A stretch of DNA of 64,000 nt. Origin: an uncultured Pseudomonadales bacterium. GTDB taxonomy: Bacteria; Patescibacteriota; Microgenomatia; UBA1400; PJMF01. The stretch spans positions 10,798 through 74,797 of the forward strand of contig CAZFRD010000002.1 of NCBI GenBank assembly GCA_964521215.1, given 5' to 3'. Shown one piece after another: positions 37,875 to 56,956 of this stretch (positions are counted from its first letter, which is position 1; each line of letters opens with the position of its first letter). Below the pieces are notes generated by a model. That model saw only the letters and a program-made list of their open reading frames with translations. It did not search any database and was not told the origin of the DNA. A program made the translations under genes and the position numbers.

Positions 37875-37995
37875 ATCACTCCTTTTTCAAATGAACATTA
37901 ATATGCTAGGGCAGGGAAACAACCTCATCATATCACCATCTCTGACTATCAAACAAGCACAAATTCACTCGATTGCTCATCCGAAGATTAATCTA

Positions 37996-38001
37996 TATAA
38001 T
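37996..38001 (+). promoter_or_regulatory. -10 hexamer TATAAT 10 nt upstream of the ATG at 38012
   Basis: atcTATATAATagacaccgctATG. Confidence 0.4.
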
Positions 38002-38011
38002 AGACACCGCT

Positions 38012-39880: not shown

Positions 39881-42800
39881 TTATATATCAAACAGCTCTT
39901 TTCTTGATCTTTCAGACGCATTTAGAAGCGACTCTTCGATGAGTCTCTGCATCTTATCAATTTCCTTATTGATCTTCTTAGAATGTTCGCCTGTAATGAA
40001 TCCCGCTTTCACTGCAACTCGTAAAATATCCCTTACCTGACTTCTTTTCAATGCAACAGAAAGCTCTGCTACCTGAAAGTTGTGATGAATTAAGCCAAGA
40101 AGGTACATATATTGAAAATCAAACTGTATTTCTTTGGCCTTTAAGTTTGCCTCTTTCGCTAATTTACTTAAGTCGTCTGCCAACTTAGCGTTCCCACTCG
40201 CCCTAGCACTCTTTGCGCGTTCTCCCAATACAACCGCTTCATTCATTTGGTCCCTCAAACCATAAATAAACGGGTGCAAATAGGTAAGTGTATTGGTCAA
40301 TCTTTGATATGTCGACACCTGACTATATTCGCTTGAATTGAGTCCCGTTTTGATTAGTTCTCCCTTGATAAAATGAGCGGTGTTTTTCATTTGCCTGTAC
40401 CACGTTGCCAACGCATCTTCTTCAATATTGTCCCATGGCATATTCTCTACCATAAGCTCTCCCTGCGCATTCCTATATGACATAAAGTCAATAATGTTGC
40501 CTTTTGCATCCAAGTTAGTCGTCATCTTTCTTTTGTACTCAACCCCATCTTTGTTGACGGTGTATACCGTACCTTCATAACAATGATGAAAGAATCCAGG
40601 AAACAAATCCCACCTCGTATCTAATCGATCTCTTTTGCCAGGAGGTAAAACATAAATTACCGGCTTCGCGTGACCAGCAACTCCCCGCTGATCATTGTAA
40701 TCAAAATATCCTGTCAGAGTAATTTGTGGACCTGATTCAGCATCTTTGCCTTTGTATTTCCTTCTAAATTCAGAAAAGTGGATCACCTCTCGAACCTGAT
40801 CCTTAATTACCGCTGCATTTAAGATATCTAACTCACTTGCGCGAAAAAGCGATCTATACAGCCTATAGGCAATCATTGCGGAGGCGGGGTCGGTTTGACT
40901 TGTAACAAACTTTATCACCCTGTCTCTATCTGCTGTAAGCGTAGAACTATCAACATCTGGCAGCGCTGGTTCTTGACCGGTCATAATTCTATCCATAATT
41001 CTCCACGCTGCACCAACTTTCTTGTGACGAAATAAGTGACCGAGTTGCGAACTTCTAAGATCAACCTCGTTTTGCCGAATTGTTTCAATCATTATGTCCT
41101 GGGTACTTTCAACCATTCTATAAACATCATTAAGTTCTTTTCGGGCGCTGATCATCGTTGAAATATAGTCAACTTCTGCCTGAGCAATTTTGCCTTGAGC
41201 AACCAAACTAGATAACTTGTCCCTCATTGCAATCATTGCGTTGTATTCACCTACGTTAATTGTGTCTTTAAAGCCGGCATAAGTTTCCTCTATCTTTAGA
41301 ATTTTTGCTTCAAACCACTCTCTGCTCACAACCTCTGGCTGCTCTTTACTTCTTCTAATGCACTGATCCAAGTGGCGAGTGGCCTCACCATAGTTGGTGT
41401 TTAGACCTGAAATAGCTGATCCAACTGATTTACTTTGTGGAAATTTTTTTGAATTATCCAATAAATTCTGACTTATTACAAGATTGTGTGCATCTGTTAG
41501 TCTTAATTTAAACCCAGGATTTGCTAGGGTGCCACTTTCTAACATTGCGGTGTCATAACAGGTAGCCCCAGTTGTTCCACAGTGTGGTGCAATATTTTTC
41601 GCTATATCGATTGCCCTTACTTCCCTAATTATTTTTGTTAAAGCAATTATTTCTGGCTGCTTTTCCCACTCTTCTTTACCAGCGGTATCAATTCTTTCCT
41701 TTAATAATGCGTCAGCTTTTTGTTTTCGCTTTAGCAATTCTAATCTCGCCTTCTCAATCTGAGGATTTGGCGATGGATTTTCAATCAAATGTGCAATAGA
41801 ACTACTTCGAGCTTCTAAGCCCTGTGATAGAATTACGGCATTGGCATAAGATTTCGTTGTCACCAATGAGTTACCACCCGTATCTATAATACTATCAATG
41901 AACACAGCTAGTTGATTCACATCAGTTTTCCACTTGGTAAATTCAAGTACTTGACCGGTCTCCAACTTTATTTGTTTCAGCTCATCAAGACACTTTTGTG
42001 CTGGAATCCAATACTTCTGAGACAAATAGTCCTCGTAAATTTTTCCAGAAACTTTACTTGCCAATAGTGTTTTATTACTATCAAGCTGTGTCTCAATTTG
42101 CGAGATATGTAAGAAATTAGGAGAACCTAAGGAAATTGCCTGTCTGGCTTGCTCGGTGATTACTCTAAGCATTTGAAGGCTTGGGGTTGTTTTTTCCAAA
42201 TTTGACTTCCACTGCTCGAAAACTCTAGTTACTAAACCAAGCTCTAACTTATCTAGTCGACTACCGACATGATCTTTAAGTTCTTCGGCACTCAATCTTT
42301 CTTCATTTATGGTACTTCCAGATAATACGCGAATGGCTCTCTCAAATGAAACTCTTGTATTACGAATAACTTCGAGAGCATTGTTACCAGTATATTCAGG
42401 CAGCGGTATGGTTGGATCAAAATTGGTGTCTACTAGTTTTTTTTCTAGATCATCGATTGATCGCTGGACCCCAGAAATAATCGTATCTAACCCATTCTCT
42501 TTCGCACTGGGAATAACTAGTTCTTGTAATCGACCTATGGCCTTTTGAATTCGCTTAAGTCTAGATCCAGCAATATCTGACCAAGAGTTCTTGAGTCGAG
42601 TAGCCTCAAGATGCGCGTCTTTGTCTGAAAATGCTTGGGCTACCAACAACTCTAATGCTGATTCGATTTGTTCAGCTTCTTCAACTAGGATTTCTAGTTC
42701 ATTTTGTGTACTCGGCAAAGTCATCGAATCCTGGATCCACTTTCTTACTAACATGTCTGCTGCTATTATTTTCTCTTCAATTAGATTGGGGGCTAATTCC

Positions 42801-43093
42801 AGCGCAACCCGGTCATTAACTTGAACGACTTCTTCAGGTTCAATTTCATCTTGAGTTGCGTGACTTTTTTGGTAATCAGATTGAGTAATACCAAATTTTT
42901 CAAGCAGCACTATTTTAAAAGATTCTGGAATATTTTTCGATTTATCGAGCCCACGAAGCATCTCGATAAGTTCATTTCTGAGCTTTTCCACTGGCTCAGT
43001 ATCTAATGATTTTGTTGCACGCACTAAGGCTTGCGAAAATTCTGCCAGCGAATACACACTACCACCTGATATCTCTCCTCTTGGTTCAGTCAT
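39881..43093 (-). CDS. Large soluble protein of unknown function (1070 aa)
   Basis: Long alpha-helical, charged sequence with no TM segment, Walker motif or HUH/relaxase motif recognised. It is transcribed opposite to the surrounding T4SS genes. Confidence 0.4.
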   Translation of the reverse strand: MTEPRGEISGGSVYSLAEFSQALVRATKSLDTEPVEKLRNELIEMLRGLDKSKNIPESFKIVLLEKFGITQSDYQKSHATQDEIEPEEVVQVNDRVALELAPNLIEEKIIAADMLVRKWIQDSMTLPSTQNELEILVEEAEQIESALELLVAQAFSDKDAHLEATRLKNSWSDIAGSRLKRIQKAIGRLQELVIPSAKENGLDTIISGVQRSIDDLEKKLVDTNFDPTIPLPEYTGNNALEVIRNTRVSFERAIRVLSGSTINEERLSAEELKDHVGSRLDKLELGLVTRVFEQWKSNLEKTTPSLQMLRVITEQARQAISLGSPNFLHISQIETQLDSNKTLLASKVSGKIYEDYLSQKYWIPAQKCLDELKQIKLETGQVLEFTKWKTDVNQLAVFIDSIIDTGGNSLVTTKSYANAVILSQGLEARSSSIAHLIENPSPNPQIEKARLELLKRKQKADALLKERIDTAGKEEWEKQPEIIALTKIIREVRAIDIAKNIAPHCGTTGATCYDTAMLESGTLANPGFKLRLTDAHNLVISQNLLDNSKKFPQSKSVGSAISGLNTNYGEATRHLDQCIRRSKEQPEVVSREWFEAKILKIEETYAGFKDTINVGEYNAMIAMRDKLSSLVAQGKIAQAEVDYISTMISARKELNDVYRMVESTQDIMIETIRQNEVDLRSSQLGHLFRHKKVGAAWRIMDRIMTGQEPALPDVDSSTLTADRDRVIKFVTSQTDPASAMIAYRLYRSLFRASELDILNAAVIKDQVREVIHFSEFRRKYKGKDAESGPQITLTGYFDYNDQRGVAGHAKPVIYVLPPGKRDRLDTRWDLFPGFFHHCYEGTVYTVNKDGVEYKRKMTTNLDAKGNIIDFMSYRNAQGELMVENMPWDNIEEDALATWYRQMKNTAHFIKGELIKTGLNSSEYSQVSTYQRLTNTLTYLHPFIYGLRDQMNEAVVLGERAKSARASGNAKLADDLSKLAKEANLKAKEIQFDFQYMYLLGLIHHNFQVAELSVALKRSQVRDILRVAVKAGFITGEHSKKINKEIDKMQRLIEESLLNASERSRKELFDI

Positions 43094-43172: not shown

Positions 43173-44228
43173 ATGAGTGAAAATGAGTACAACCCCGAAA
43201 ACGATGCTAGTGCTGGTTTCACCTCAGCGATGGAGGCTGGCAATGGAGCTGCAACAAAAACGGTGCCCGAAGTTGGTGATGGTCAAGCACAATTGAACGC
43301 AACGAACTCAGGCACGATTCAAGAAGATTCGACCCAAGAGTCAATAAGCATTAACGCCACACTTACAGAACAAATGCCAGCTTACCTCAATGCCCTAGAG
43401 GAACAGCTCGAAATTGGCGAAGATGTCTGGAACTATGAAAAAGCAGATGAATTAATTAAGCACATTGCCCCTAATAACGAAGTTCGTGAAGAAATACGAC
43501 GAAACCACCCCTCACTAGAAGAGAAATTGCTTGTTCTAGAGGAACAAAACGAAAAGGCTAGGCTTAAGAGACAAAATACATTACTATCCGAGCTAGCTAT
43601 GGAGGAGGAATTATCCCAAGCGGTTCAAGGCATAGACCTTGAAAGCAGTGGAGTAGATCAAGTACTGGTTGATGATTTGAAACCTGTTGAAAACGAAAAA
43701 ATATTTATCGATCTGGATGAAGATGGGAACGAAGGGGATGCGACCGGTACAATTAGGACGGAGCGAGAGGAGCATTCAATTGGTTCAAAAGCATTATTTG
43801 TGTTGTTGGTTCTGTATGATATTACCCAAGGTGGTCAGAGCTTGCGTGTAGCAGCAAGAACGGGTCAAGAACCTTTATTAGAGTTGATAGGGATCAATCC
43901 AGATAGGGCTAAAAGAATTATAGAAAAATCAAGAGCTCAAGAAAAACTCTTGTTCTCGCTATCTCCTGTTCGGCTTAAGGATTTCTTTGAAACAAAAATA
44001 AAAAGAGGTTACCGACAAGAAATCGTAACCTTTTTAGCTGGAATTTCTAGGGAGACTCGCGTCGATTTACTTAGTGGACGAGAGGTTCTTCCGAGAGGAC
44101 TAGGGCGATACTCTCATCTTCTTGATCAGGCTCAAATTCAACAGATCCTTGGTGCTTTAAAACCAGAAGATATTGACAGACTAGATCTGAATGACGTAGT
44201 CGCCCAACGACAACCAAATACAACATAG
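43173..44228 (+). CDS. Acidic hypothetical protein (351 aa)
   Basis: Glu/Asp-rich ORF transcribed divergently from the 1070-aa gene. No recognisable motif. Confidence 0.35.
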   Translation: MSENEYNPENDASAGFTSAMEAGNGAATKTVPEVGDGQAQLNATNSGTIQEDSTQESISINATLTEQMPAYLNALEEQLEIGEDVWNYEKADELIKHIAPNNEVREEIRRNHPSLEEKLLVLEEQNEKARLKRQNTLLSELAMEEELSQAVQGIDLESSGVDQVLVDDLKPVENEKIFIDLDEDGNEGDATGTIRTEREEHSIGSKALFVLLVLYDITQGGQSLRVAARTGQEPLLELIGINPDRAKRIIEKSRAQEKLLFSLSPVRLKDFFETKIKRGYRQEIVTFLAGISRETRVDLLSGREVLPRGLGRYSHLLDQAQIQQILGALKPEDIDRLDLNDVVAQRQPNTT

Positions 44229-44329: not shown

Positions 44330-44824
44330 ATGGGAGATATCTTAACACCAACGCCAGATGATGTACTCAGAGAGGGACCCAAGTTCAGAAACGACAGAGT
44401 TACTTCTGTAGCCTATAAGCTAAATCGAGGTGCTGAAGTCACACTAAGTGAGCTCACCACCTTTTTAGAATCTCTTGCGCCTCCAAGCAACGAAGGTTTG
44501 CCATATTATGTCAAGAAAGTTGCAGATGGTGTTGCGAAAGAGAGAAAGATTAAGTTATTCCCCATATTATGGGGTGACTCATCAAAAATCATGGTTGGCT
44601 ATATACCAAATTCAGAACAACCCAACCAAGACAGCTTCTTTGACTTAAATAGCGTTAAGTTGGTTTGTGAGTTCGAACTTGGGAATGCTGGAGACTTCAA
44701 CCAAAAATCGCCATCTACTGAAGAGATTAGGCAAAAAATTGAGGCGTTTTTTGAAAAGCAAGATATGCATCGATCAATTAGAGACACCATTGATGCAATT
44801 CAAAAACAATTTACTGGTTTGTAG
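44330..44824 (+). CDS. Hypothetical protein (164 aa)
   Basis: ORF with an AGGT-type spacing before the ATG. No motif recognised. Confidence 0.35.
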   Translation: MGDILTPTPDDVLREGPKFRNDRVTSVAYKLNRGAEVTLSELTTFLESLAPPSNEGLPYYVKKVADGVAKERKIKLFPILWGDSSKIMVGYIPNSEQPNQDSFFDLNSVKLVCEFELGNAGDFNQKSPSTEEIRQKIEAFFEKQDMHRSIRDTIDAIQKQFTGL

Positions 44825-44915: not shown

Positions 44916-47900
44916 ATGGCGGATGATTCCTCTGAAAAAACTATTAGCCAACCAAAGAGGTTGGTCTCCGGCTTTGCCCTTAATAACCTTGCTCACAGAC
45001 AGTGGCTGGCGGTTTTTTTGGCTGGACTGCAAGAGGCGCTATTTAAAGAAAACAAACTAGTAGAAAACCTCAAAATACCAGTTTGGTTTGGTTCTAAACC
45101 CTCGTGGGTCATCTTAACCACCACCGACGCAAAGAGAGATCTCGACGATCCCGCTCGAGACGAGAAGTCTTTATTTCCCACCGACATCGTTTACCTAATA
45201 GTCGATCTGGCCATAAGACTTGATGTTCCCCGCAAAGAGATTGAATATTATCTATCGAACGCCACTAGAGATGGGGACCTGTTCATAGAATCCACTGTTT
45301 TAGACACTCAAACTATCACTGAACTGAAAACACTTGTTGACGAAATCGGTAAGAAATTAGAGTTGGTAACAAAACAAGAGGACAAACAGAAAGAAGAGGA
45401 GGCTCCACCGACATTGGAAAAAGGTCCAGCTGAAGCTGTCAAACCTGTTGCCCCACCCCAAAAGGGGGTTACAACCGCAGGGGTTAAACCCACCCCAACC
45501 GAAGGTGGAGATCAAGCTGAAACACAAGTTGAACTACCCGGAGCAGTCGCGGCCTCGACAGTCATAAGCGCTCAAGCCGCCGCCCGAACCAAGAGATATG
45601 AGTTTGCCTGGATCTACAACCATTTTTTGTTCGACCTGACAGGCAAATATGGCATTGAGCCAAGTGATGAGTTGAGGGCACAACTCCAAGGAATTGTTTC
45701 AGAGCATCTGGGCACTATTTCTCCAGATGAAATGGCTAGTTTTTTTGCCAATCCCACTGCGCGTTTAAGAGCGATTCAAGCTATTTACCAAAAACTTAAC
45801 CTTCAAGATGACTTTAAGCAAAAGCTCAGTAATCAATATGACACTTACCTGCTAACTGCCACTGATTCACAAAAACAACAATTCCTACAAAGCAACAACT
45901 TCGCAAATGGCGGGTTGAAGATAATCGAAAACTTACAGAATTTTCAATTAGAAAATAATCAGTCGGGAGTGATCAAACAAGCCGAGACAACGCTGGCTGG
46001 TCTCACTGGTACGGCCATTGACGGCCCAACGGCTTTAAACTTTGAACGAGCCATCGAGGCATTAGCTCTCACTATGGGTTCCAAAACCGTGGCAACAGAC
46101 TTGGGACTGAGTTACCCAGAAAATAAGGCAGACCTGGAGACCTTCATTAAGAAGCTCAGCGCCAAACAGATAGCCCAGATCTTTTTCCCCAACCCCAATA
46201 AGCCAGATGAAGTAGATGACAAGATACTGTTAGCTATTGAGCAAAATCTTAGCTCAATTCAAAATCTACTTACCGCTACTCTGCTGGCAACTTCGCTGGA
46301 AAAACTAGCCACCGCACCGAATGAGTTAAAAAAACTTGTCGGCATAGCAGTCTTTACTGACGATGATCTTAAAGGCGACCAGACCGCAATCGAATCTGCA
46401 ATCGTCAGTGTGCGAACGCTTACCGGCGCGATGCCGGTTACTGGCAAAGACGACGACGTAACTCCTGCAATTACCACCAGCCACACCCAGCAGCTAATGG
46501 AACAATACCAAAAGCGGGTGCAAAAAATTTGGGCGTCTTTGGAAGAAGAGTCTCAACTGCGGGCTTACTACGCCCTATTTGGACTAACTGAGGATCCTGC
46601 CAACCACCAAGTTTTGTTGGATAAAGTCCAGCACCTTAGAATACCGGGTAGCAACAAATTACCCTGGAATCCTAATTTGATCAACTTGATCAATTGGGAA
46701 GATTTCTTAAGAAAAGATTACAAAGAAAACCAAAGGGTCGCGGCTCTTCGCGCCAAAGCCGCCGAGGGCTTTACCAAAAACCTCAGTCAGCTCCAACTTG
46801 AACAACTGCAAATCAGCCACTTACTTAACGAACTAGAAAACGGCGTGGTCTATGCCGAGGGCGTTGCTCACAAAATCAACCAAAACGAAGATATTGTTGA
46901 TCTTGAATTCCGCTCGGTACTAAACACACTAGACTTAGTCACCACTCGTTTGGACTTACTTAAAAGTCGAAAATTGGCTGAAGATGATGAAAAATTCAAT
47001 GTTGCATTAAACGAAAGAGTTGACAACCTTTCCGGTCGCTGTACGACAGTTTTATCCACCCTAGCTGGCTATAACCGCTTGGCGGGCCTACTGCAGAATT
47101 ATCAAAATCTCACCTTGGTTGAAACCTATCAACTATCGCTTGAGTACGAAATTCCCGAAATTTTACTCTACCAAGTTGGGGATATTACTCAACCGGGTTT
47201 TAATCAGCAAGCTGAGTTGTCCGACAGAGTCACAGCCGATAACTTACTTGATGACCCTTCCTCAATGTCGCTCGGCCAACTCAATGCTGCTGCGAGAAAG
47301 AGCAACGAGCTACATCCTAGTCGACTCGATCAAATTAACCTTGCCAACCAAAACAATCAGGCGCTTAATGATCTAAAAAACATAGTTGGTGGAGTGGGAG
47401 AAATAGCTGCTCAGTCAAAAGGCAACTGGGTAGCTGCGGCCGGTCTGGGTATTAAGAAATACCTCACCGACAAGGAATTTCGCCAAAGCATCAACCGGAC
47501 AGCTAAAAGATACGCAAAAAAAATAGCCTTGTTAGGTGGAATTGTTGTTGGAGGTGGAGTAGCAATCGGATTGCTTCTTAGACATTTGCTAGGAATGGCT
47601 GGACAGTGGGGCGGGATGCTTGGAGGAGCGTTGGCTGGCGGCACCGTTGGAGCGGCACTTGGACCACTTGGAGTAATATTGGGAGCGGGAATTGGGGGAT
47701 ATTTAGGATATAACGTTGGAGCCAAAGCCGCCGCCCTCAATGCTTCATCTGGGGCGGAATTGCTATCACCCAGTAGTTCAGCCGCCCAACCGATTTTCCA
47801 AGAAGAAGTCCTTTCGTCCTCACCCGCCACTTTTCAATCTGCCACTAGTGGCACTGGCATGGAAGCTACCACCCCAGCTGCCGCCACAGCTTCCCCCGTT

Positions 47901-49046
47901 GCTTCTTCTGCCGCCACCTCCGTTGCCACCCAAGCTCCTTTTCTTGGCAGTCTGGCTGGCATCCCAGTCTTAGCCTTAATCCCCGCCCTATCAATGCTGT
48001 CGCTGGCTGGGATCACGCTTTACACTTTGTTTGTAATTTTTTCCGCTTTCCTCGCCCCTCTACCCGTGGGCAACCTCGGTGGTGTCAACACCACTAAATC
48101 TGAATATGCGGTGCTGACAAAACTGGCATCACCGGGGTCACTATCAAACAACACGACCGCCAACGTCAACTACAAAATTATCTTGCAACCTAGAAGGAAT
48201 TATTCGCTCAAAGTAACCGCTGTGACCGATAGCGCCAACACTGGCTTCAACTTTCAATCTAATCGCTCAGGCAAAATTAATCCCCAAGTTTCACCACCCG
48301 CCAGCTTGCTCAATCCTCGTATTTCTTTGGCAGACTTTTCTCCCGATTTTTTTGGTCAGACCCAACTAAAAGAATATAGTGTCACCTTCTCTGGGGGCAA
48401 GGACGTGCTGGTTAGTAACGTGATAAAAATTACCTACGATGTCCAGGATGCTCAAGGCAATTCCATTGCCACTAACCAAACGATTGACGCCATCGCCAAT
48501 GTGTCCATTGGCGACCATGGCGTATTTTGCTGGCCCACAACGGGAGAAATAATCCAGTTGCCAGGGGGCAGTTTTTCACACAATAACTCTGACGCATTTG
48601 ATATTTCAGCTCCAAAAACCAACAAGGTCTACACCCCATTTGCTGGCTGGGCTCAAAAGGGCGATATGGGTAATAGTGATTATGGCAAATACGTAGTAGT
48701 TGACTCATATGTGCAAGGAAGGTGGATCAGAATTATTTACGCTCACTTAAGTAGCGCTGCGGTGGGTACTCCCACAGCCCACACGTGGCTTAATATAGCC
48801 TACAACCATGACGACAACCAAGCGAACAACATTGGTCAACAAGTTGGCGCTGGTCAACTAATTGGCGCAGTCGGCTCCACTGGCAACTCTACAGGACCAC
48901 ACCTTCATTATGAGCTCATATATATTAACGGCAGAAGACATACTTTCGGAAGTGGATTCAGCCTTATTAACTTAGTGCCTCCAAGACCTGCGGGGGGCAA
49001 ATACAGAGTAGGAGATTATGTTAAAACCTGTTATCCATTTAATTAA
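44916..49046 (+). CDS. Giant bitopic protein with C-terminal peptidase M23 (LytM) domain; PrgK/VirB1-like peptidoglycan hydrolase candidate
   Basis: 1376 aa. The first ~870 aa are helical and soluble. Two Gly-rich hydrophobic segments follow (IALLGGIVVGGGVAIGLLL...GALAGGTVGAALGPLGVILGAGIGGYLGY), then an Ala/Ser/Thr-rich linker. The C-terminus carries the M23 motifs (GDHGVF..., AVGSTGNSTGPHLHYELI). A TATAAT lies 7 nt before the ATG. Confidence 0.75.
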   Translation: MADDSSEKTISQPKRLVSGFALNNLAHRQWLAVFLAGLQEALFKENKLVENLKIPVWFGSKPSWVILTTTDAKRDLDDPARDEKSLFPTDIVYLIVDLAIRLDVPRKEIEYYLSNATRDGDLFIESTVLDTQTITELKTLVDEIGKKLELVTKQEDKQKEEEAPPTLEKGPAEAVKPVAPPQKGVTTAGVKPTPTEGGDQAETQVELPGAVAASTVISAQAAARTKRYEFAWIYNHFLFDLTGKYGIEPSDELRAQLQGIVSEHLGTISPDEMASFFANPTARLRAIQAIYQKLNLQDDFKQKLSNQYDTYLLTATDSQKQQFLQSNNFANGGLKIIENLQNFQLENNQSGVIKQAETTLAGLTGTAIDGPTALNFERAIEALALTMGSKTVATDLGLSYPENKADLETFIKKLSAKQIAQIFFPNPNKPDEVDDKILLAIEQNLSSIQNLLTATLLATSLEKLATAPNELKKLVGIAVFTDDDLKGDQTAIESAIVSVRTLTGAMPVTGKDDDVTPAITTSHTQQLMEQYQKRVQKIWASLEEESQLRAYYALFGLTEDPANHQVLLDKVQHLRIPGSNKLPWNPNLINLINWEDFLRKDYKENQRVAALRAKAAEGFTKNLSQLQLEQLQISHLLNELENGVVYAEGVAHKINQNEDIVDLEFRSVLNTLDLVTTRLDLLKSRKLAEDDEKFNVALNERVDNLSGRCTTVLSTLAGYNRLAGLLQNYQNLTLVETYQLSLEYEIPEILLYQVGDITQPGFNQQAELSDRVTADNLLDDPSSMSLGQLNAAARKSNELHPSRLDQINLANQNNQALNDLKNIVGGVGEIAAQSKGNWVAAAGLGIKKYLTDKEFRQSINRTAKRYAKKIALLGGIVVGGGVAIGLLLRHLLGMAGQWGGMLGGALAGGTVGAALGPLGVILGAGIGGYLGYNVGAKAAALNASSGAELLSPSSSAAQPIFQEEVLSSSPATFQSATSGTGMEATTPAAATASPVASSAATSVATQAPFLGSLAGIPVLALIPALSMLSLAGITLYTLFVIFSAFLAPLPVGNLGGVNTTKSEYAVLTKLASPGSLSNNTTANVNYKIILQPRRNYSLKVTAVTDSANTGFNFQSNRSGKINPQVSPPASLLNPRISLADFSPDFFGQTQLKEYSVTFSGGKDVLVSNVIKITYDVQDAQGNSIATNQTIDAIANVSIGDHGVFCWPTTGEIIQLPGGSFSHNNSDAFDISAPKTNKVYTPFAGWAQKGDMGNSDYGKYVVVDSYVQGRWIRIIYAHLSSAAVGTPTAHTWLNIAYNHDDNQANNIGQQVGAGQLIGAVGSTGNSTGPHLHYELIYINGRRHTFGSGFSLINLVPPRPAGGKYRVGDYVKTCYPFN

Positions 49047-49998
49047 CCAGCGCTCAAAAAAATCTTGGGTATTCTCTATCCTGCTTTTACTCGTGATGAT
49101 GGGCGTGGTGTTTACCCTCCTCACACCCAGCCAACAACCAACATCTGACCAAAATAAAAATTACGATGACACCTACTCAAGCTTTTCCAATGTCGGCTAC
49201 GTTGGGGGCACTTTGGTCATACCCGAAAATCTACCAGTGTACCAACAAGCAACTTGGGAAGATCCATTGCTACTCAAAAACCAATTTGTTGCCCAGTTCA
49301 ACCTGGCGGGTGATCCCGAAGATCCCACGCTTTGGCAAAACGAAAATTTGACGATCACGCAAATAGATGAGCCAACTCGCTATGTTTTGGAATATCTGCC
49401 AGACGAAGAGGAAGCAAGCAACCCAGCTCAAGTTCAACCCGCTAGTTACCCCGATCCCACCCAAATTGCCAACAGTTGGATTAATCAACATTTCACCACT
49501 TATTCACTCACGGCCGTAAGTTCGGAAGTTGAGTATCTAACCGGCGAGTATGAACTGGTAAAAACATCTAAATCGCTCACCACTTTGGTCAAAATTCCCT
49601 ACGCCCAAACTGCGGGCAACTACCCAGTCCAAACCGAATTAACCGATAGTTACCCGCTAATTCTTTGGGTCGACACACAGAAAAACTTGGTTAAAAAAGT
49701 AGTTTTTTACCCCACCTTGGTAACTTTCAAATCAGGAGAGGAACTGCCCACTATTAGTGTGGATGAGGCGGTAAAAAACATTAACTCGGAAAAGGAAGCG
49801 CGCATCATCAAATCTGATTTTACGCCCATTGAACCATATTCACTCGAACAAATTAAAAGTGGCAACCTAACCAGTGGCAAAATCGTTTACCGAGTGGCTT
49901 CCAACCAGTTGTTAAAACCCTTTTACTTCTTTAAAGGCAATTTAACCGACAGCAACAACATCGGATTTGAAGCTGAGATTGTGGTTCCCGCTATCTAA
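49018..49998 (+). CDS. Bitopic membrane protein (N-terminal signal anchor plus about 280-aa extracytoplasmic domain); VirB8/TcpC-like candidate by position
   Basis: RSKKSWVFSILLLLVMMGVVFTLLT anchor followed by a soluble domain. It sits between the hydrolase and the PrgI-like gene, as ConB/TcpC-type genes do in monoderm T4SS loci. This is a positional inference only. Confidence 0.35.
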   Translation: MLKPVIHLINQRSKKSWVFSILLLLVMMGVVFTLLTPSQQPTSDQNKNYDDTYSSFSNVGYVGGTLVIPENLPVYQQATWEDPLLLKNQFVAQFNLAGDPEDPTLWQNENLTITQIDEPTRYVLEYLPDEEEASNPAQVQPASYPDPTQIANSWINQHFTTYSLTAVSSEVEYLTGEYELVKTSKSLTTLVKIPYAQTAGNYPVQTELTDSYPLILWVDTQKNLVKKVVFYPTLVTFKSGEELPTISVDEAVKNINSEKEARIIKSDFTPIEPYSLEQIKSGNLTSGKIVYRVASNQLLKPFYFFKGNLTDSNNIGFEAEIVVPAI

Positions 49999-50052: not shown

Positions 50053-51255
50053 ATGAAAGAACATCCGATTCCCCAAGATATTACTAACTACCGATTTCAC
50101 ATCGTGGGCAGTATGACCCTAAAGCAGTTTTTGGAAATTGGGGCGGGCATTGTGTTCGCCGCCATCTTGTACAAAACTGGTCTCCCCGTTTTCATTAAGT
50201 GGCCCGCCATCGTCATTTCGGCTCTCACGGGTGCGGCCGCCGCTTTCTTACCCATCGAGGAGCGGCCGCTAGACCACTGGATCACCACCTACATCCGAGT
50301 TTTGTACAAACCCACCCAATTTTTCTGGAAACGGGAACCAAAGATACCCGCGCTCTTTACCTTCACCGCCAACACCGCCAACAACAACGCCGAATCGGAA
50401 TTTGACCTCTCTCCAATTAAACGTGAAAGAATCAAAGAATATATGGCTTCGCTTCACCAACCAAGCTCTAAGGACAACCAATATGACACCGCCCAACAAG
50501 TAAAAATTGGCGAAATCATCGCCTCTTTTGCCGAAGTTGAACCCACTCACAAACCTACCATCAAAATCAATGTAGAAAAACCCGACCTCCAACCAAGGGT
50601 GAGGGCGCTAAGAAAGCCAGAAGATCACCCTGCGCCCAAACCCACTAGCGTTGCCCCAGAAGTGATTGTGCCGTTTTTATATCCCGAACCAGAAGCTCAG
50701 CCCGCCCCAATAACTCAAGAGATTTTACCCCAATCCGAATCTCGAGTTGGGGTGGCTACTCAACTTAAACCAGATCAGGTGGCCTACTCTATTCGCGTTC
50801 AAGACACACCCCTGGTTCAATTTGCGGAAGAAAAGGAAGAAGAGGAAATGCGAGAGAAATCACCCATCAAACTCCTCACTAACGAAGAACTCCAACAACA
50901 ACTCCAACCCACCCCCTCAACTAAAAAAGACGTTGTGGCCGCTAGTAGCTCCGCTACTTTCAACACCAACCTACCATTTCCCAATGTCCCCAGCGAACCG
51001 AACAAACTGGTTGGTATGGTGCTAACCCAAAATGGAGAATTAATTCCCGGCGCAGTTGTGGAGGTGCATAATGCTCATGGATCAATTGAACGAGCGGTCA
51101 AGTCCAATGCTTTGGGTCAATTTTTTATTACTACCCCACTAACCGCTGGTAAATACGTAATAAAAGTCGAGGCAGATGGCTATCAATTCCCCACCGCCGA
51201 ACTAGTGGTCAACAACTCGGTTTTGCAACCTCTCGAGTTGAGAGCCACCACCTAA
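50053..51255 (+). CDS. PrgI/TcpE-family (VirB3-like) membrane protein with long C-terminal extension ending in a carboxypeptidase-regulatory-like beta-sandwich domain
   Basis: The N-terminus IPQDITNYRFHIVGSMTLKQFLEIGAGIVFAAILY...FLPIEERPLDHWI matches the PrgI-family pattern, with two TM helices. A Pro/Glu-rich linker follows. The C-terminal segment GMVLTQNGELIPGAVVEVHN...LGQFFITTPLTAGKYVIKVEADGYQ resembles a CarboxypepD_reg domain. Confidence 0.55.
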   Translation: MKEHPIPQDITNYRFHIVGSMTLKQFLEIGAGIVFAAILYKTGLPVFIKWPAIVISALTGAAAAFLPIEERPLDHWITTYIRVLYKPTQFFWKREPKIPALFTFTANTANNNAESEFDLSPIKRERIKEYMASLHQPSSKDNQYDTAQQVKIGEIIASFAEVEPTHKPTIKINVEKPDLQPRVRALRKPEDHPAPKPTSVAPEVIVPFLYPEPEAQPAPITQEILPQSESRVGVATQLKPDQVAYSIRVQDTPLVQFAEEKEEEEMREKSPIKLLTNEELQQQLQPTPSTKKDVVAASSSATFNTNLPFPNVPSEPNKLVGMVLTQNGELIPGAVVEVHNAHGSIERAVKSNALGQFFITTPLTAGKYVIKVEADGYQFPTAELVVNNSVLQPLELRATT

Positions 51256-51306
51256 ACTCTACCCATTTTCTAAGTACCCTTGGTTATAGTATGCTAGCAT
51301 AGCCAA

Positions 51307-52179
51307 ATGCCCACCACCCAATCTACGACTACCACCCAACAATTTTTGGATATTTTCGACATTACCAACGATGTGTTAATTCTAAAAAATGGCACCTCAG
51401 CCATCATTCTCACAGTCGATGCCATGAACTTTGGTTTGCTGGCGGAAGAAGAACAAGACGCCATTATGTATGCCTATGCAGGGTTGCTCAATTCCCTCAA
51501 CTATCCCATTCAAATCGTGGTGCAGTCAAAAACCAAAGATGTCACTGGTTACCTCCGAAAGCTTTCGGAACAAGAAGAGAAAACCCAAGATGAAACCATG
51601 CGCAAACGCATTGCTCAATACCGCCTGTTTGTGACCAACCTCATTCATGAGCGCAACGTTTTAGACAAAAGATTTTACGTAGTCATTCCCGCCACCTCAA
51701 TAGAGATGGGTTTTTTGGGCGCCCAAACTTTTATTCCCGGCAAAGATGATTTTAATATTAGCGACGTCGAGCGCAGCGTGATTATCGAAAAAGCCACCAA
51801 CCTGCTCGAGCCCAAGCGCGACCACCTAATTAGTCAATTTGCGAGAATTGGGCTTTTTTCTCGACAACTCAACACCCAAGAAATTATTCAGTTGTTCTAC
51901 GTGAACTACAACCCCGAATCGACCGAGGGTCAAGAAATAGCCGAAAGCTCATCCTATACTAGCGGTCTCGTCCACGCAGACATGGGCACTGCTTACGGTG
52001 GTTCCGAGCCCATTCAAACTGAAACTACCGCGCCCCCAGTCCCAGACAGCTTACCAAACACAACTACTCAAGTTCCTTCACCTCAGCTAAACATACTCAA
52101 CCAACCAGTGGTTAAAACAGCCGGCGTCACCGCAGAACAAACCGTCTGGCCCCAACCAACTAACGAAAGTTATCAATAA
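51307..52179 (+). CDS. VirB4 N-terminal-domain-like protein (possible 5' fragment of a split virB4)
   Basis: ILKNGTSAIILTVDAMNFGLLAEEEQDAIMYAYAGLLNSLNYPIQIVVQSK resembles the extreme N-terminal region of monoderm VirB4/TrsE/ConE ATPases. The ORF stops 1 nt before the virB4 ATG in a different frame. Confidence 0.45.
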   Translation: MPTTQSTTTTQQFLDIFDITNDVLILKNGTSAIILTVDAMNFGLLAEEEQDAIMYAYAGLLNSLNYPIQIVVQSKTKDVTGYLRKLSEQEEKTQDETMRKRIAQYRLFVTNLIHERNVLDKRFYVVIPATSIEMGFLGAQTFIPGKDDFNISDVERSVIIEKATNLLEPKRDHLISQFARIGLFSRQLNTQEIIQLFYVNYNPESTEGQEIAESSSYTSGLVHADMGTAYGGSEPIQTETTAPPVPDSLPNTTTQVPSPQLNILNQPVVKTAGVTAEQTVWPQPTNESYQ

Positions 52180-52180
52180 T

Positions 52181-54079
52181 ATGCCCAAGCTTTCATCCCT
52201 CCTACCATTTGGCAAGAAAAAAACTCCCTCCGAGCAACCGCTGACCAAAGAACAACAGGAGTTAGAAAAAATCAAAAATTTTAGCCGAGGCTTAGTCACT
52301 ATCCAAGACATTATTGCCCCAGAAGCAATAGAAATCGATTTTACTTTTCAAAAAATCAACTCAACCTATACCCGCACGCTGTTTGTCGCTGGCTATCCCC
52401 GAAGCGTCCCCGCTAATTGGCTATCACCCCTGATTAACTACCCCCATCGCATCAGTACATCAATGTTTATCTACCCCGTAGATTCTTCAGAAATTCTCGA
52501 TAACTTAAAACGAAAAATTACAGAAATGGAAGCGGAAATTCAATCAGACTTAAGAGCGGGAAAAATCAGCAACATTAATACCGAGGTGAAGCTGGAAGAC
52601 GCCCGCTACCTAAGAGAGGATTTGGCCAAAGGCTCAGAACGCTTTTTCCAATTTGGTTTATATGTCACCATTACCGCAATTTCCAAAGAGGAATTAGACA
52701 GAGTCACCAAGGCAATCCAGTCATCGCTTGGGTCACTACTTATTGTGTCCAAAAAAGCCACCCTCCAGATGGATGAAGGCTTTAAAACCACCCTCCCCAT
52801 GGGCGTAGACAAACTATTGGTGACGAGAAACATGGACACCACTTCTCTGGCCACCACCTTTCCCTTCACCTCCAGCGAGTTGACTCAAGAAAACGGCATT
52901 ATGTATGGTATCAACGAACACAATGATTCATTAGTCATTTTTGACCGATTTTCAATGGAAAATGCCAATATGTTAATTTTCGCTAAATCTGGTGCTGGTA
53001 AATCATTTACCGTCAAACTTGAGGTGTTACGCCAACTGATGTTTGGCACCGAGGCTATTATTCTTGATCCCGAACATGAATATGAGGAAATGTGTCGGGC
53101 AGTCAATGGCGAATACATCAACTTCACCTTCGGTTCTCAGGCTAAAATTAATCCGTTTGACCTATCCTCTCTCTATGAAGAGGGTGAAAACGAGTTGGGC
53201 CAAAAAATTATTTCGCTCCACGGCCTGCTCAAAGTGATGTTGGGCGCCATGACCCCCCAACAAGATGCGTTGTTGGACAGAGCCTTGGTAGCCGCTTATA
53301 AAGCCAAAGGCATTACTCCAGATCCTTCAACCCAGACCAATGAACCACCACTAATGGAGGACTTATATAAAGCCCTCATTGGTATGGAAAACAAAGAGGC
53401 AGACGATATTAGCGCTCGCCTGGAGAAATTTATCACTGGTTCATTTAGAGGCATTTTTGACCAAGGCTCAAACATTGATATCACTAACCCTCTCACAGTT
53501 TTTTCGGTCAAGGAAATGGAGGAAGGACTTCGTCCGATAGCGATGTATATTATCCTCGACTTTATTTGGACGAGAGTGAAAAAAAATCTCAAAAAAAGGA
53601 TCCTAATAATTGATGAGGCCTGGTACTTCATGAAGCACCCGGACTCCGCTTCTTTTATTCATTCAATGGTCAAAAGAGCTCGTAAGTACTTCTTGGGCAT
53701 TACCACTATTACTCAAGACGTTGAGGATTTTTTACACAACGACTTTGGCAAAGCCATTGTGTCTAATGCTTCAATTCAATTTTTGATGAAACAATCAACC
53801 GCCTCTATTCCCGTTTTGGCGGAAACATTCTACTTATCCCAAGGCGAGCGCCAGCTCTTAGTGACCGCCGATATTGGAGAGGGCATCTTCTTTGCTGGCC
53901 AAAACCACGTAGCTCTGAGGGTGGTGGCTAGCCCAGAGGAACACTCCCTAATTACCACCAACCCGGAGGAGCTATTACAAAAACGAGAGCAGCAAGTCGC
54001 CAGCGTGGTCAACAACGCTGTGTTTACGGGCTCTACCATTGCTGATTACGCTCCTCCCCCTCAAAATACTCAGGGATGA
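52181..54079 (+). CDS. virB4: VirB4/TrsE/PrgJ-family T4SS ATPase
   Basis: The N-terminal region IAPEAIEIDFTFQKINSTYTRTLFVAGYPRSVPANWLSPL is a monoderm VirB4 hallmark. Walker A FAKSGAGKSF, Walker B ILIIDEAWYFM, and C-terminal motifs. 632 aa. Confidence 0.8.
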   Translation: MPKLSSLLPFGKKKTPSEQPLTKEQQELEKIKNFSRGLVTIQDIIAPEAIEIDFTFQKINSTYTRTLFVAGYPRSVPANWLSPLINYPHRISTSMFIYPVDSSEILDNLKRKITEMEAEIQSDLRAGKISNINTEVKLEDARYLREDLAKGSERFFQFGLYVTITAISKEELDRVTKAIQSSLGSLLIVSKKATLQMDEGFKTTLPMGVDKLLVTRNMDTTSLATTFPFTSSELTQENGIMYGINEHNDSLVIFDRFSMENANMLIFAKSGAGKSFTVKLEVLRQLMFGTEAIILDPEHEYEEMCRAVNGEYINFTFGSQAKINPFDLSSLYEEGENELGQKIISLHGLLKVMLGAMTPQQDALLDRALVAAYKAKGITPDPSTQTNEPPLMEDLYKALIGMENKEADDISARLEKFITGSFRGIFDQGSNIDITNPLTVFSVKEMEEGLRPIAMYIILDFIWTRVKKNLKKRILIIDEAWYFMKHPDSASFIHSMVKRARKYFLGITTITQDVEDFLHNDFGKAIVSNASIQFLMKQSTASIPVLAETFYLSQGERQLLVTADIGEGIFFAGQNHVALRVVASPEEHSLITTNPEELLQKREQQVASVVNNAVFTGSTIADYAPPPQNTQG

Positions 54080-54160
54080 GGCTATTTATCAGTGTATTTT
54101 TCCCCTTGCAGAGTGTGGGAAACTTTGTGTATAACTTCCAAGTATATTTGGGGTGGAAAT

Positions 54161-55627
54161 ATGTCCTTACAATCTTTTTCCAAAGACGAGGTGTCTTTAG
54201 TTTGGAACAAAACCTGTTCCAAACTTGAGGGGCAACTCTCGCCGGCGGTGTATAACACCTGGATTTTAGCCAATCCCCTCACCCAAGTGGTGGATCAAAA
54301 TTCCACCCTCATTGCTACCATCACTAGTCCGACCGCTTTTCACGCCACCAACTTAAAAAGAAATCTCAACCAACAACTCACTACCGCTCTTTCCCAAGTC
54401 GTTGGCAAAGAAGTGATTGTCCAGTACGAGGTGGGTAGCGCTCAAGAAAGCCAGGGGGCTGAGCGCAACTCTTGGTCGACAATAAAAACCAACGTGGGAG
54501 GTAACTCATTCAACCCGGGGGACACCAAGTCTCCGTTGGTGGCCGATTTGTTCTCTGATACCACCATTAAACAGTCGGAGGTAGATCGATCGCAGTTTAG
54601 AGCCAAACAAATCGGCCTCAACCCCGACTTTATTTTTGCTTCATTCGCCGTTTCTTCGAGTAACGAAATGGCTCATGCGGCCGCCATCGCTGTCTCCAAA
54701 AACCCCGGCGGCTCATATAACCCACTTTTCCTCTATGGGTCGGTGGGTGTGGGCAAAACCCACCTCATGCACGCCATCGGCAACAATCTCGTGGCCCAAA
54801 ATCCCAACGTCAATTTGCTTTACTGTACGGGCGAAGAGTTTACCAATGAAATCGTCCACGCTATTCAAACCAAGCAGGCGGCTAATTTTAAAAAACGTTT
54901 TCGCACCGCCCAAGTTTTACTCATCGACGACATTCAGTTTATTGCGGGCAAAAACACGGTTCAAGAAGAGTTTTTTCACACTTTTAACGCTCTAATTCAA
55001 CAACGTAGTCAAGTGATTCTCGCCTCCGATAGACCACCACAGAATATTTCTCTCCTCGAAGACAGATTGCGCTCTCGCTTTGAAGCCGGACTAATGATAG
55101 ACATTGGTCAACCCACCTTCGAACTAAGAACTGCCATCTTACTGCTCAAGGCAGAACAAGCTCACCTCAACTTTCCCATCGAGTTAGCCAAACAAGTTGC
55201 TGAAGTGATTACTAGCGCCCGAAAAATTGAGGGTTTCATCACCAATATTCGCTCAGAGATCGAGTTAAAACACAGAGAATTAAATGAGGAATTAATTCTC
55301 TCCCTCATTAATCAAGGTGGTGGTGACAAAACCCCCAAATTACTCATCAATCCGTCCGACGTAATCAAGGAGGTAGCTCATTTTTATCAACTCAAACAGT
55401 CTGAGATAAAGGGCAAGCAAAGAATTAAACATCTGGTGGATGCCCGCCATTTAGCCATGTACATTATGAAGGAGGACCTTCAACTTTCTTTGGTGGAAAT
55501 TGGTCGCTGGTTCGCTGGTAGAGATCATACAAGTGTGATCCATGCGGTGCGCAAGGTGACTAAAGACTTGGCGTTTAATTCCAGGCTTCAGCAAGAATTG
55601 CAACAGATAAAAAGTAGGTTGATTTAA
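54161..55627 (+). CDS. dnaA: Chromosomal replication initiator protein DnaA
   Basis: Walker A GSVGVGKTHLMHAIGN, Walker B LLIDDIQFIAGK, sensor and box VII regions, and the C-terminal DNA-binding signature DHTSVIHAVRKV. Start chosen at the ATG at 54161 (GGTGGAAAT-ATG) rather than the GTG at 54092. Confidence 0.9.
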   Translation: MSLQSFSKDEVSLVWNKTCSKLEGQLSPAVYNTWILANPLTQVVDQNSTLIATITSPTAFHATNLKRNLNQQLTTALSQVVGKEVIVQYEVGSAQESQGAERNSWSTIKTNVGGNSFNPGDTKSPLVADLFSDTTIKQSEVDRSQFRAKQIGLNPDFIFASFAVSSSNEMAHAAAIAVSKNPGGSYNPLFLYGSVGVGKTHLMHAIGNNLVAQNPNVNLLYCTGEEFTNEIVHAIQTKQAANFKKRFRTAQVLLIDDIQFIAGKNTVQEEFFHTFNALIQQRSQVILASDRPPQNISLLEDRLRSRFEAGLMIDIGQPTFELRTAILLLKAEQAHLNFPIELAKQVAEVITSARKIEGFITNIRSEIELKHRELNEELILSLINQGGGDKTPKLLINPSDVIKEVAHFYQLKQSEIKGKQRIKHLVDARHLAMYIMKEDLQLSLVEIGRWFAGRDHTSVIHAVRKVTKDLAFNSRLQQELQQIKSRLI

Positions 55628-55849
55628 GTTGTGAAAAAGTGGTTGAAAAATCCGACAGTCGCTCTGAATAAATTTAACGCTTTGTGAACTGGTGGTAAAT
55701 TAAAGAAAAAATGTTAGTATGTGAGATAAGTTATTCACAAAGCTTACAAGAGAAAATACTCACTTATTATCCACATGCTCCCACATGATGAAAAATAACC
55801 AGTTTTACACAATTATCACCCTGCCTACTAGAACAACTATTATTTCTCT
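55628..55849. other. Putative oriC: AT-rich dnaA-dnaN intergenic region with DnaA boxes
   Basis: A perfect TTATCCACA lies at about 55767-55775 and a 1-mismatch TTATTCACA at about 55731-55739. The spacer between dnaA and dnaN is AT-rich. Confidence 0.6.
55767..55775 (+). promoter_or_regulatory. Consensus DnaA box TTATCCACA
   Basis: Exact 9-mer match in the dnaA-dnaN spacer. Confidence 0.65.
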
Positions 55850-56956
55850 ATGAAACTATCAGTTAAACAGACTTCGCTTCAAAAAGTTTTAAGAGTTGTG
55901 CAAAAAAGTGTTTCCACTAAACCACAACTCCCCATCCTTTCCAGCATTTTACTCAAAGCGGAAGGCAAATCACTCTTTCTTTATTCCACCGATCTTTACA
56001 CTGGAGTTGCGGTGGAAGTAGAGGCTGAGGTAGAACGGGAAGGCATTTTTGCCGTACCCGGTAAGTATTTCACTCAGGTGGTTAACTCACTTTCCGCACC
56101 AACCATTAGTCTTGAAGTTAAAGACAACAACTTACTAGTGCAAGCAAAAGATTCCCTTACTAAGCTTGTTGGTCTCAATGCGGAAGATTTTCCAGCCTTT
56201 CCAGTAATTGATGCGACCAAAAAAGTCATCCCCGTCAAGGAGCTTCAAGAGTCATTAATGAGCGTCGCTTTTAGTGCCTCATCAGACCAGACTAGGCCAA
56301 CTTTAACCGGCATTTTATTTTCATTTGAAACCTCCAAGACTCATCTCATCGCCACCGACGGATTTAGGCTTTCTGTTCGCACTATTGACGTTCCCATCGA
56401 AAAAGAAGGCTCAATTTTAGTCCCCGCCAAAGCCCTGGTGGACATTTTTAAAACCTCGGAAGAGGAAAAAGTTACTTCGGTCTCATTTGCTTTATCTACC
56501 GAATTAAAACAGGTGAAATTCGAAGTTGGGTCGTTTGCGTTTTATATTAGGCTTCTTGATGGAGAGTATCCTCCATATAAAAAAATTATCCCCTCGCAAA
56601 TTACAACGACCGTCAGTTGTAACAAAAATGATTTGGAAGAAAAACTGCATCAAGCGCTAATTTTTAATCAGGACAATTCTTTTATCACTCAGTTTAGAAT
56701 TAAAACCGCCGGCGTGACTCTCTTTTCTACCTCTCCCAGCGCCGGCGAAAACACCTCGGAACTAGCCGGAGCTACCGTGAAAGGAGAGGAAGTTACTATT
56801 GCATTTAATACCCGCTATTTACTAGATTTCATTAAGGTGGTGGAGGATGATTGGATTGAGATTGAGATCGCCGAAAGCCTCAAGCCGGCGAGACTAAAAG
56901 TTCAGTCATTACCAGACTTCCAATATGTAGTGATGCCCTTCAGGGTAACCTCATAA
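55850..56956 (+). CDS. dnaN: DNA polymerase III beta subunit (sliding clamp)
   Basis: 368-aa three-domain beta-clamp-like sequence located directly after dnaA and the oriC spacer. Confidence 0.85.
   Translation: MKLSVKQTSLQKVLRVVQKSVSTKPQLPILSSILLKAEGKSLFLYSTDLYTGVAVEVEAEVEREGIFAVPGKYFTQVVNSLSAPTISLEVKDNNLLVQAKDSLTKLVGLNAEDFPAFPVIDATKKVIPVKELQESLMSVAFSASSDQTRPTLTGILFSFETSKTHLIATDGFRLSVRTIDVPIEKEGSILVPAKALVDIFKTSEEEKVTSVSFALSTELKQVKFEVGSFAFYIRLLDGEYPPYKKIIPSQITTTVSCNKNDLEEKLHQALIFNQDNSFITQFRIKTAGVTLFSTSPSAGENTSELAGATVKGEEVTIAFNTRYLLDFIKVVEDDWIEIEIAESLKPARLKVQSLPDFQYVVMPFRVTS

Follow-up and report, generated by a model that had tools for sequence, protein, structure and literature searches.

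We analyzed a 64,000-nucleotide stretch of DNA (hereafter the window; GenBank assembly GCA_964521215.1, contig CAZFRD010000002.1, positions 10,798 to 74,797) from an uncultured bacterium of the Patescibacteriota lineage Microgenomatia, and focused on an open reading frame (ORF) located at 50053..51255 on the plus strand. This ORF starts with ATG and encodes a long-form PrgI/VirB3-family protein of 400 amino acids followed by a stop codon (the long PrgI), as assigned from the ORF list, Pfam and homologue clusters. Since M1 is invariant in 44 aligned relatives, the ATG start is correct. In the Pfam search, residues 5-88 matched PrgI (PF12666; profile positions 1-87 of 91, 29.5 bits against a gathering score of 27, E 1e-6) and residues 319-386 matched CarboxypepD_reg (PF13620; 39.7 bits against a gathering score of 32.3, E 6.5e-10), and all of the 44 aligned relatives matched both families at E ≤ 0.01. 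An AlphaFold2 (AF2) model built from the alignment of these relatives revealed a helical hairpin (residues 23-41 and 46-64, joined by a four-residue turn) with predicted local distance difference test (pLDDT) values above 90. The hairpin is followed by a helix at residues 73-85, weaker helices at 120-134 and 146-158, a region mostly below pLDDT 50 (residues 165-295), and a seven-strand β-sandwich comprising residues ~300-400, again above 90. When we compared the model with the PDB using Foldseek, the sandwich resembled transthyretin-like domains found in carboxypeptidases N, D and M, CnaB domains and related folds (E 5e-6 to 1e-4), with root-mean-square deviations of 2.5-3.8 Å over 81-95 columns; the matches include 2nsm, 3mn8, 1qmu and 5aq0 (E 6e-6 to 2e-4). 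A search of PDB sequences with the profile of the family alignment gave chance-level matches alone (BRG1 and FlhB, E 0.3-0.5).

The original prediction, made from the sequence alone, proposed a PrgI-type N-terminus with a transmembrane (TM) hairpin joined to a C-terminal CarboxypepD_reg-like β-sandwich, and both parts were borne out by the Pfam scores above the gathering thresholds, the confident AF2 model and, for the sandwich, the Foldseek matches. Thus, at the two points where that prediction could have failed, the N-terminus does align to the PrgI profile and the C-terminus does contain a sandwich. It was also correct in stating that PrgI proteins are usually small. VirB3 homologues are 10-15 kDa with short cytoplasmic ends and PrgI has 117 residues (PMC12857230), and the present protein, with its 400 residues, lies outside this size range. 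Based on profile hidden Markov models (HMMs), structure prediction and fold search, the identity of the protein as a PrgI/VirB3-family member with a C-terminal CarboxypepD_reg-like sandwich in a type IV secretion system (T4SS) locus is secure. The ORF is the VirB3 subunit of a chromosomal, origin-proximal T4SS of a Microgenomates-group Patescibacterium, in the long form typical of its clade.

The protein can be divided into six regions. The N-terminal tail (residues 1-22, 50053..50118; MKEHPIPQDITNYRFHIVGSMT) is conserved more strongly than any other part of the protein: in residues 1-27, mean pairwise identity within the family reaches 87%, and the median identity to the window protein over 79 species-level loci is 85%. 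The tail has AF2 pLDDT values below 50, and on this model it is predicted to be disordered when alone. The two-helix membrane hairpin (residues 23-64, 50119..50244), defined by AF2 and two hydropathy peaks, lies inside the PrgI match, and residues 28-67 show 53% family identity. The post-hairpin segment (residues 65-105, 50245..50367) contains helix 73-85 and the basic stretch FFWKREPK, is covered by the PrgI match up to residue 88, and is 63% identical across species (residues 68-105). In canonical VirB3/PrgI proteins, the C-terminal helix is the counterpart of this segment. The middle module (residues 106-190, 50368..50622) was recognized from the alignment, AF2 and an HMM of its own, which matches 80 of 81 related loci. 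It shows 35% family identity and carries the motifs DLxPxKRxRIKEY and EKPxLxVRVRxLR; its helices at 120-134 and 146-158 have pLDDT values of 62-81, while the region around the VRVR motif is below 50 although the motif is conserved. The module gave no match in Pfam or PDB searches. Then follows a hypervariable, acidic, Pro/Glu/Gln-rich disordered linker (residues 191-295, 50623..50937), identified from identity, charge and AF2, with 17% pairwise identity, a net charge of about -11 and pLDDT below 50. Its composition drifts among relatives, being rich in Asn, Ser and Lys in P0238 and in Pro, Thr and Ala in P0185, and its length varies from ~0 to more than 500 residues, so that 65-601 residues separate the N- and C-terminal domains. 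This lack of a length constraint suggests a flexible tether rather than a spacer of defined span. The C-terminal module (residues 296-400, 50938..51252) consists of the stretch FNxxLPFPxxPxxPNK and the CarboxypepD_reg/transthyretin-like sandwich supported by Pfam, AF2 and Foldseek; it is 50-56% identical across species, is found in 81 of 81 loci, and has strongly conserved motifs of its own, LPFPxxPxxPNK and RAVKxNALGQFF. It is always placed at the extreme C-terminus, with 2-5 residues between the last strand and the stop in all relatives. The earlier description of a uniform Pro/Glu-rich extension of ~250 residues therefore holds only in part: Pro (11.9%) and Glu (11.0%) are indeed the two most common residues in 101-318, but residues 106-190 are conserved and partly helical, and the linker proper is just ~191-295.

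A search of 5.8 billion proteins yielded 589 homologue clusters, nearly all of them full-length with both Pfam domains, and the named clusters are called 'PrgI family protein' and come from Patescibacteria, Woesebacteria or Pacebacteria. In a scan of one genome per species, relatives were found in at least 183 genomes; 80 loci were kept and one more was added, giving the 81 loci used throughout, and in every one of these the protein has both the N- and the C-terminal domain. An exhaustive HMMER search with the N-terminal domain alone retrieved 1,615 representatives at E ≤ 1e-3, 1,244 at 1e-10 and 129 at 1e-30. Among the best 150 of these matches, 140 were new representatives at 50% identity, and both domains were present in 126 of the 140, while the other 14 stop inside the linker or have tails that look out of frame, so these look truncated or frameshifted. 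The relatives span 284-811 residues: the ten longest (509-811) have the same two Pfam domains and a longer linker, and a 284-residue species-level protein is almost without one. A fusion of a short prgI with an unrelated gene through assembly, frameshift or annotation error was considered and rejected. A few database relatives are indeed short (113-291 residues), as such an error would suggest, but they stop in the linker or have out-of-frame-looking tails and are thus themselves truncated; neither the window nor ~1 Mb of related loci yielded a separate or paralogous second copy of the C-terminal domain, and the reading frame runs without interruption through hundreds of clusters and all 81 of the 81 independent loci, which makes an artefact scarcely conceivable. 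The long form is also not the singular fusion that had been implied. It is the standard form in a large Patescibacteria clade (Woesebacteria/Pacebacteria), with 589 clusters and at least 183 species-level genomes, and well over 100 species share both its architecture and the order PrgI, trsD-like, virB4, dnaA of the genes.

The genes downstream of the long PrgI, all on the plus strand, place it in a T4SS. It had been described as lying immediately upstream of virB4, but a trsD-like gene (51307..52179) intervenes, the only one between the two, in an order found in 72-79 of the 81 loci. The trsD-like protein has 290 residues with a Pro/Thr/Gln-rich tail and is a homologue of the VirB4 N-domain: its first ~130 residues match the VirB4 N-terminal region (NCBIfam VirB4_plasma positions 104-239, E 3e-9), its match to NCBIfam TrsD/TraD is weak (19.6 bits, E 7e-4, against a cut-off of 200), so that position and homology agree with a TrsD while no curated threshold is reached, and its copy in one relative carries the Pfam family TraC-like (PF26593). 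The long PrgI and trsD-like ORFs are in the same frame, with three stop codons within 50053-52176, and the trsD-like gene ends 1 nt before virB4 in a different frame. The VirB4 N-domain is encoded as a separate TrsD-like polypeptide, and this split, kept in 79 of 81 loci, is already known in Patescibacteria, for which TrsD has been described (PMC12102498). The virB4 gene (52181..54079) encodes an ATPase of 632 residues, assigned with NCBIfam and Pfam as the monoderm CD1110/MPF-FATA type that characterizes Patescibacteria T4SSs (NF045971, 389.5 bits against a cut-off of 325; Pfam P-loop_TraG, AAA_10 and CagE_TrbE_VirB). The dnaA gene begins 13 nt past the virB4 stop codon and is followed by dnaN (together 54092..56956), so the T4SS locus sits at the replication origin. 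Wherever the contig allows, the recurrent order is M23 protein, bitopic protein, long PrgI, trsD-like, virB4, dnaA and dnaN; among the 81 loci, trsD-like is present in 79, virB4 in 72, dnaA in 66 and dnaN in 60. The GTG listed as the dnaA start codon probably lies upstream of the true start, as similarity to relatives starts near residue 20 and an ATG (MSLQSF...) is present at codon 24 (54092..54160). The dnaA-dnaN spacer (55628..55849) contains one perfect DnaA box (55767) and one box with one mismatch (55731). Scans for promoters, terminators and DnaA boxes gave nothing above shuffle expectation, with window-wide box counts at chance level. No relaxase or type IV coupling protein family was detected among the scanned neighbour proteins in family-library scans.

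Upstream, a bitopic protein of 326 residues (49018..49998, plus strand), recognized by hydropathy and with homologues in 40 loci, is anchored in the membrane by residues 18-36 and has an 'LTP' motif and a ~290-residue ectodomain; it is conserved but evolves fast (27% identity), and a word-index search with this protein found only 3-6 relatives. We considered it as the missing VirB8, an idea that is not supported, since its AF2 model (7 sequences, pLDDT 73, predicted template modelling score 0.66) resembles EUBREC_2869 (5coz, E 5e-7) and YycI (2o3o, E 1e-4) in Foldseek and is not NTF2-like, although the model is weak. The preceding gene (44916..49046, plus strand), which overlaps it by 29 nt, encodes a protein of 1376 residues that lacks TM segments over ~870 residues, has three hydrophobic segments at 870-1031 and carries an M23 peptidase domain at its C-terminus (Pfam Peptidase_M23, 55.9 bits). 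Its conservation is limited to the C-terminal third, in about 59 loci, and it is probably the wall hydrolase of the machine, with a VirB1-like role. A polytopic protein of 595 residues (37973..39760) has a signal-like N-terminus, at least seven hydrophobic segments, a Gly-rich tail and no Pfam match; because VirB6 is reported to be scarce in Microgenomatia, it may be a divergent VirB6-like channel candidate. Next to the T4SS block, the ORFs at 33156..36980, 39881..43093 (minus strand), 43173..44228 and 44330..44824 encode proteins of 1274, 1070, 351 and 164 residues without Pfam matches at E ≤ 0.01, and for the latter two tblastn found nothing at E ≤ 1e-5 among the 81 related loci. ARAGORN detected no tRNA genes anywhere in the 64 kb, and no Rfam family reached its gathering score there. 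Related contigs (L002-L081) are often titled 'uncultured Pseudomonadales bacterium', 'Methylococcaceae', 'Vitreimonas' or 'Limisphaerales'; because their locus is of the same Patescibacteria type as that of contigs with the titles Woesebacteria, Pacebacteria or Patescibacteria, these look like mislabelled bins.

The architecture of the locus agrees with known systems in many respects. Patescibacteria T4SSs contain VirB4, TrsD and PrgI/VirB3, usually have no relaxase or coupling protein nearby, and often lie beside dnaA (Quinonero-Coronel et al. 2025, PMC12102498), and the window locus, with an MPF-FATA-like VirB4, a putative TrsD homologue and a PrgI homologue beside dnaA and dnaN, is a member of this group. 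In that study 22.6% of Microgenomatia VirB3 homologues were associated with virB4, whereas here virB4 is the second gene after the long PrgI in every locus whose contig extends far enough. The order VirB3-like, TrsD, VirB4 is identical with that of TrsC-TrsD-TrsE of staphylococcal pGO1 (TraC and TraE of pIP501), but TrsC and TraC are small two-TM proteins without extra domains (PMC12857230). Like PrgI of Enterococcus pCF10 and the VirB3 protein TrwM of R388, the window protein has an N-tail, a two-helix hairpin and a C-terminal helix, all within the HMM match at 5-88, and is encoded just upstream of VirB4 ATPase genes; 1:1 binding to the VirB4 N-domain would be expected. Those proteins are 10-15 kDa with short cytoplasmic ends, while relatives of the window protein reach 811 residues, and here a middle module, a disordered leash and a β-sandwich are added. 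The sandwich shares its seven strands and its above-cut-off PF13620 match with CarboxypepD_reg domains at the C-terminus of carboxypeptidases D, N and M, in CnaB and in SusC N-terminal extensions; these are carried by enzymes, pilins and transporters and are mostly extracytoplasmic, whereas here the domain caps a VirB3-type anchor. Natural VirB3-VirB4 fusions exist, and in CagE and the Campylobacter plasmid systems a VirB3 core likewise continues into a large cytoplasmic polypeptide. Such fusions come closest to a VirB3 whose C-terminus is prolonged by a long cytoplasmic stretch, although their extension is the ATPase, while here it is a non-enzymatic sandwich on a leash and VirB4 is separate, split into TrsD and VirB4.

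Regarding the side of the membrane, we consider it likely that the extension, comprising the middle module, the linker and the sandwich, is cytoplasmic. The protein has exactly two hydrophobic helices, and Kyte-Doolittle hydropathy in a 17-residue window (KD17) showed two peaks in 323 family members. No third hydrophobic helix was found in these members, the best KD17 value after residue 75 being 1.03 on average and 1.63 at maximum, and with only two helices both termini are placed on the same side. The topology predicted in this way would not export the C-terminal region, for which a signal peptide or an odd number of TM segments is needed, a single-span alternative being possible. VirB3 has two TM helices with short cytoplasmic N- and C-termini (PMC12857230), and in the cryo-electron microscopy structure of the R388 system VirB3 wraps the N-domain of the cytoplasmic VirB4 (PMC9259494); the PrgI match of the window protein takes in helix 73-85, the counterpart of the cytoplasmic C-terminal helix. 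Lys and Arg together number 2.7 in the N-tail, 1.4 in the turn and 5.8 in the 33 residues past helix 2, with five Lys/Arg at residues 82-97, and charged residues abound in the middle module. Conservation points in the same direction. Over the same species, identities to the window were 82% for VirB4 (medians, ~70 loci for VirB4), 62% for the TrsD-like protein, 52% for DnaA and 37% for DnaN, and 27-30% for the exposed parts of the two upstream proteins. The N-tail (85%) and the post-hairpin segment (63%) are thus conserved like cytoplasmic parts of the ATPase and unlike the exposed parts, which favours a cytoplasmic location, and the sandwich evolves at about the DnaA rate. In addition, some relatives have Lys-rich linkers of ~500 residues, which are unlikely to be exported.

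Here, we need to consider several observations that weigh against this assignment. The CarboxypepD_reg/transthyretin-like fold is mostly extracytoplasmic, and the Foldseek matches of the sandwich are mainly to carboxypeptidases, CnaB pilins, SusC N-terminal extensions and S-layer proteins; cytoplasmic proteins, namely transhydroxylase (4v4c_B), HIU hydrolase and catechol dioxygenases, are also among them. Helix 1 is marginally hydrophobic (KD17 1.84, with a conserved Glu28), and helix 2 (KD17 2.29) is preceded by two Lys (K41 and K49) and followed by the acidic stretch PIEERPLDH, flanks that resemble the N-in/C-out signal-anchor pattern. The acidic residues right after helix 2 and the two Lys in the turn make the positive-inside rule less decisive. 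The sandwich contains few charged residues. Finally, the large N-terminal region of the 1376-residue protein has no TM segment and is nevertheless poorly conserved, so 'cytoplasmic means conserved' is no rule in this locus.

Based on these observations, we suggest with moderate confidence that the long PrgI is best explained as a VirB3-tethered docking domain in the cytoplasm at the base of the TrsD/VirB4 ATPase. By analogy with VirB3 of R388, the N-tail and the post-hairpin helix would be cytoplasmic and may clamp the N-domain of VirB4, here the separate TrsD-like polypeptide, thereby holding the ATPase at the membrane. Since no further membrane segment follows, the middle module, the linker and the sandwich would also lie in the cytoplasm, where six tethered sandwiches would surround the TrsD/VirB4 hexamer, the linker serving as a flexible leash without length constraint. 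The sandwich, and perhaps the VRVR motif too, might then dock onto a conserved cytoplasmic partner. This partner could be the ATPase base itself, with a role in assembly or regulation that would replace the VirB8-tail and VirB10 contacts of diderm systems, or a substrate or adaptor, a candidate suggested by the lack of a linked coupling protein. The function of the extension is speculative. It also counts against this explanation that the docking partner is hypothetical.

A narrower version of this explanation, in which the cytoplasmic sandwich is a receptor for substrates or adaptors and recruits them in place of the missing coupling protein, is unlikely; six receptors on leashes would fish cargo, either protein or nucleic acid, to the TrsD/VirB4 motor. 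If true, it would be a new way to feed a T4SS. It is also unlikely that the sandwiches have no receptor role and form a purely structural collar, in which the six VirB3 copies attach through their sandwiches to one another or to the membrane. Such a collar would stabilize the hexameric base and thus substitute for the contacts that diderm systems make through VirB8 tails and the cytoplasmic part of VirB10. The arguments for a cytoplasmic topology apply equally to such a collar, the sandwich has many invariant surface-type residues, and the R388 ATPase base is stabilized by VirB8 tails and the VirB10 cytoplasmic domain, which were not detected at this locus, but a collar would be expected to have a linker of defined length, and the linker is unconstrained.

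The extension could instead be extracellular, which we regard as possible but rather improbable. Helix 2 would then be a single N-in/C-out span or the hairpin would be inverted, the linker would cross the wall zone, and the sandwich would bind the wall, the S-layer, an outer part of the machine or a host surface. In a T4SS without recognizable VirB8, VirB9 or VirB10, this would connect the VirB3/VirB4 base with the envelope. The mostly extracytoplasmic fold family, with CnaB/SdrD-type adhesin domains among the matches, speaks for this arrangement, as do the marginal helix 1, the signal-anchor-like helix 2 with K41/K49 before and an acidic flank after it, and a linker that is here acidic and Pro-rich like wall-spanning regions; moreover, homologues of VirB8 and VirB6 are scarce in Microgenomatia (PMC12102498), so some envelope-spanning part is missing. 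However, AF2 gives a hairpin with a four-residue turn at pLDDT above 90, the PrgI HMM covers a post-hairpin helix that is cytoplasmic in VirB3, and the five Lys/Arg at 82-97 and the charged middle module do not fit an exported segment. The tether ranges from ~0 to more than 500 residues and is Lys-rich in some relatives, and the domain is 50-56% identical across species compared with 27-30% for the exposed neighbour parts. Nor was LPXTG or any other wall-sorting or wall-binding signal (LysM, SLH) found in the long PrgI, either in the Pfam scan or at the C-terminal ends of relatives. The original prediction had proposed that the fusion could tether the VirB3/VirB4 subcomplex to the wall or outer layers. 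With two helices only, cytoplasmic VirB3 termini, no sorting signal and a tether of 65-601 residues, this role is disfavoured as the less likely reading, and we retain the cytoplasmic docking domain as the preferred explanation.

The T4SS and its PrgI homology have already been published, and the long form is already present in databases as 'PrgI family protein'. Published work on Patescibacteria T4SSs (PMC12102498, PMC10633639) treats PrgI as a VirB3 homologue only; the C-terminal domain is not mentioned in the text or supplements of PMC12102498 that were searched, and no description of the added domain or of the domain combination was found in the literature searched. The T4SS is one of the few machines kept by the ultra-small, host-dependent Patescibacteria, and Ca. 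Southlakia epibionticum, the one tractable species, cannot grow as an epibiont without its components (Wang et al. 2023, PMC10633639). In the present loci VirB4 is the best-conserved gene of the origin block (82% compared with 52% for DnaA), which fits an essential role. It should also be noted that the expectation of a 10-15 kDa size for VirB3 may mislead T4SS annotation in candidate phyla. The domain may bear on what the Patescibacteria T4SS carries and on how it chooses its cargo when neither a coupling protein nor a relaxase is linked to it: here the VirB3 anchor has gained a conserved extra domain that canonical systems lack, and this domain provides a concrete handle that could lead to the partners or the cargo of the machine.

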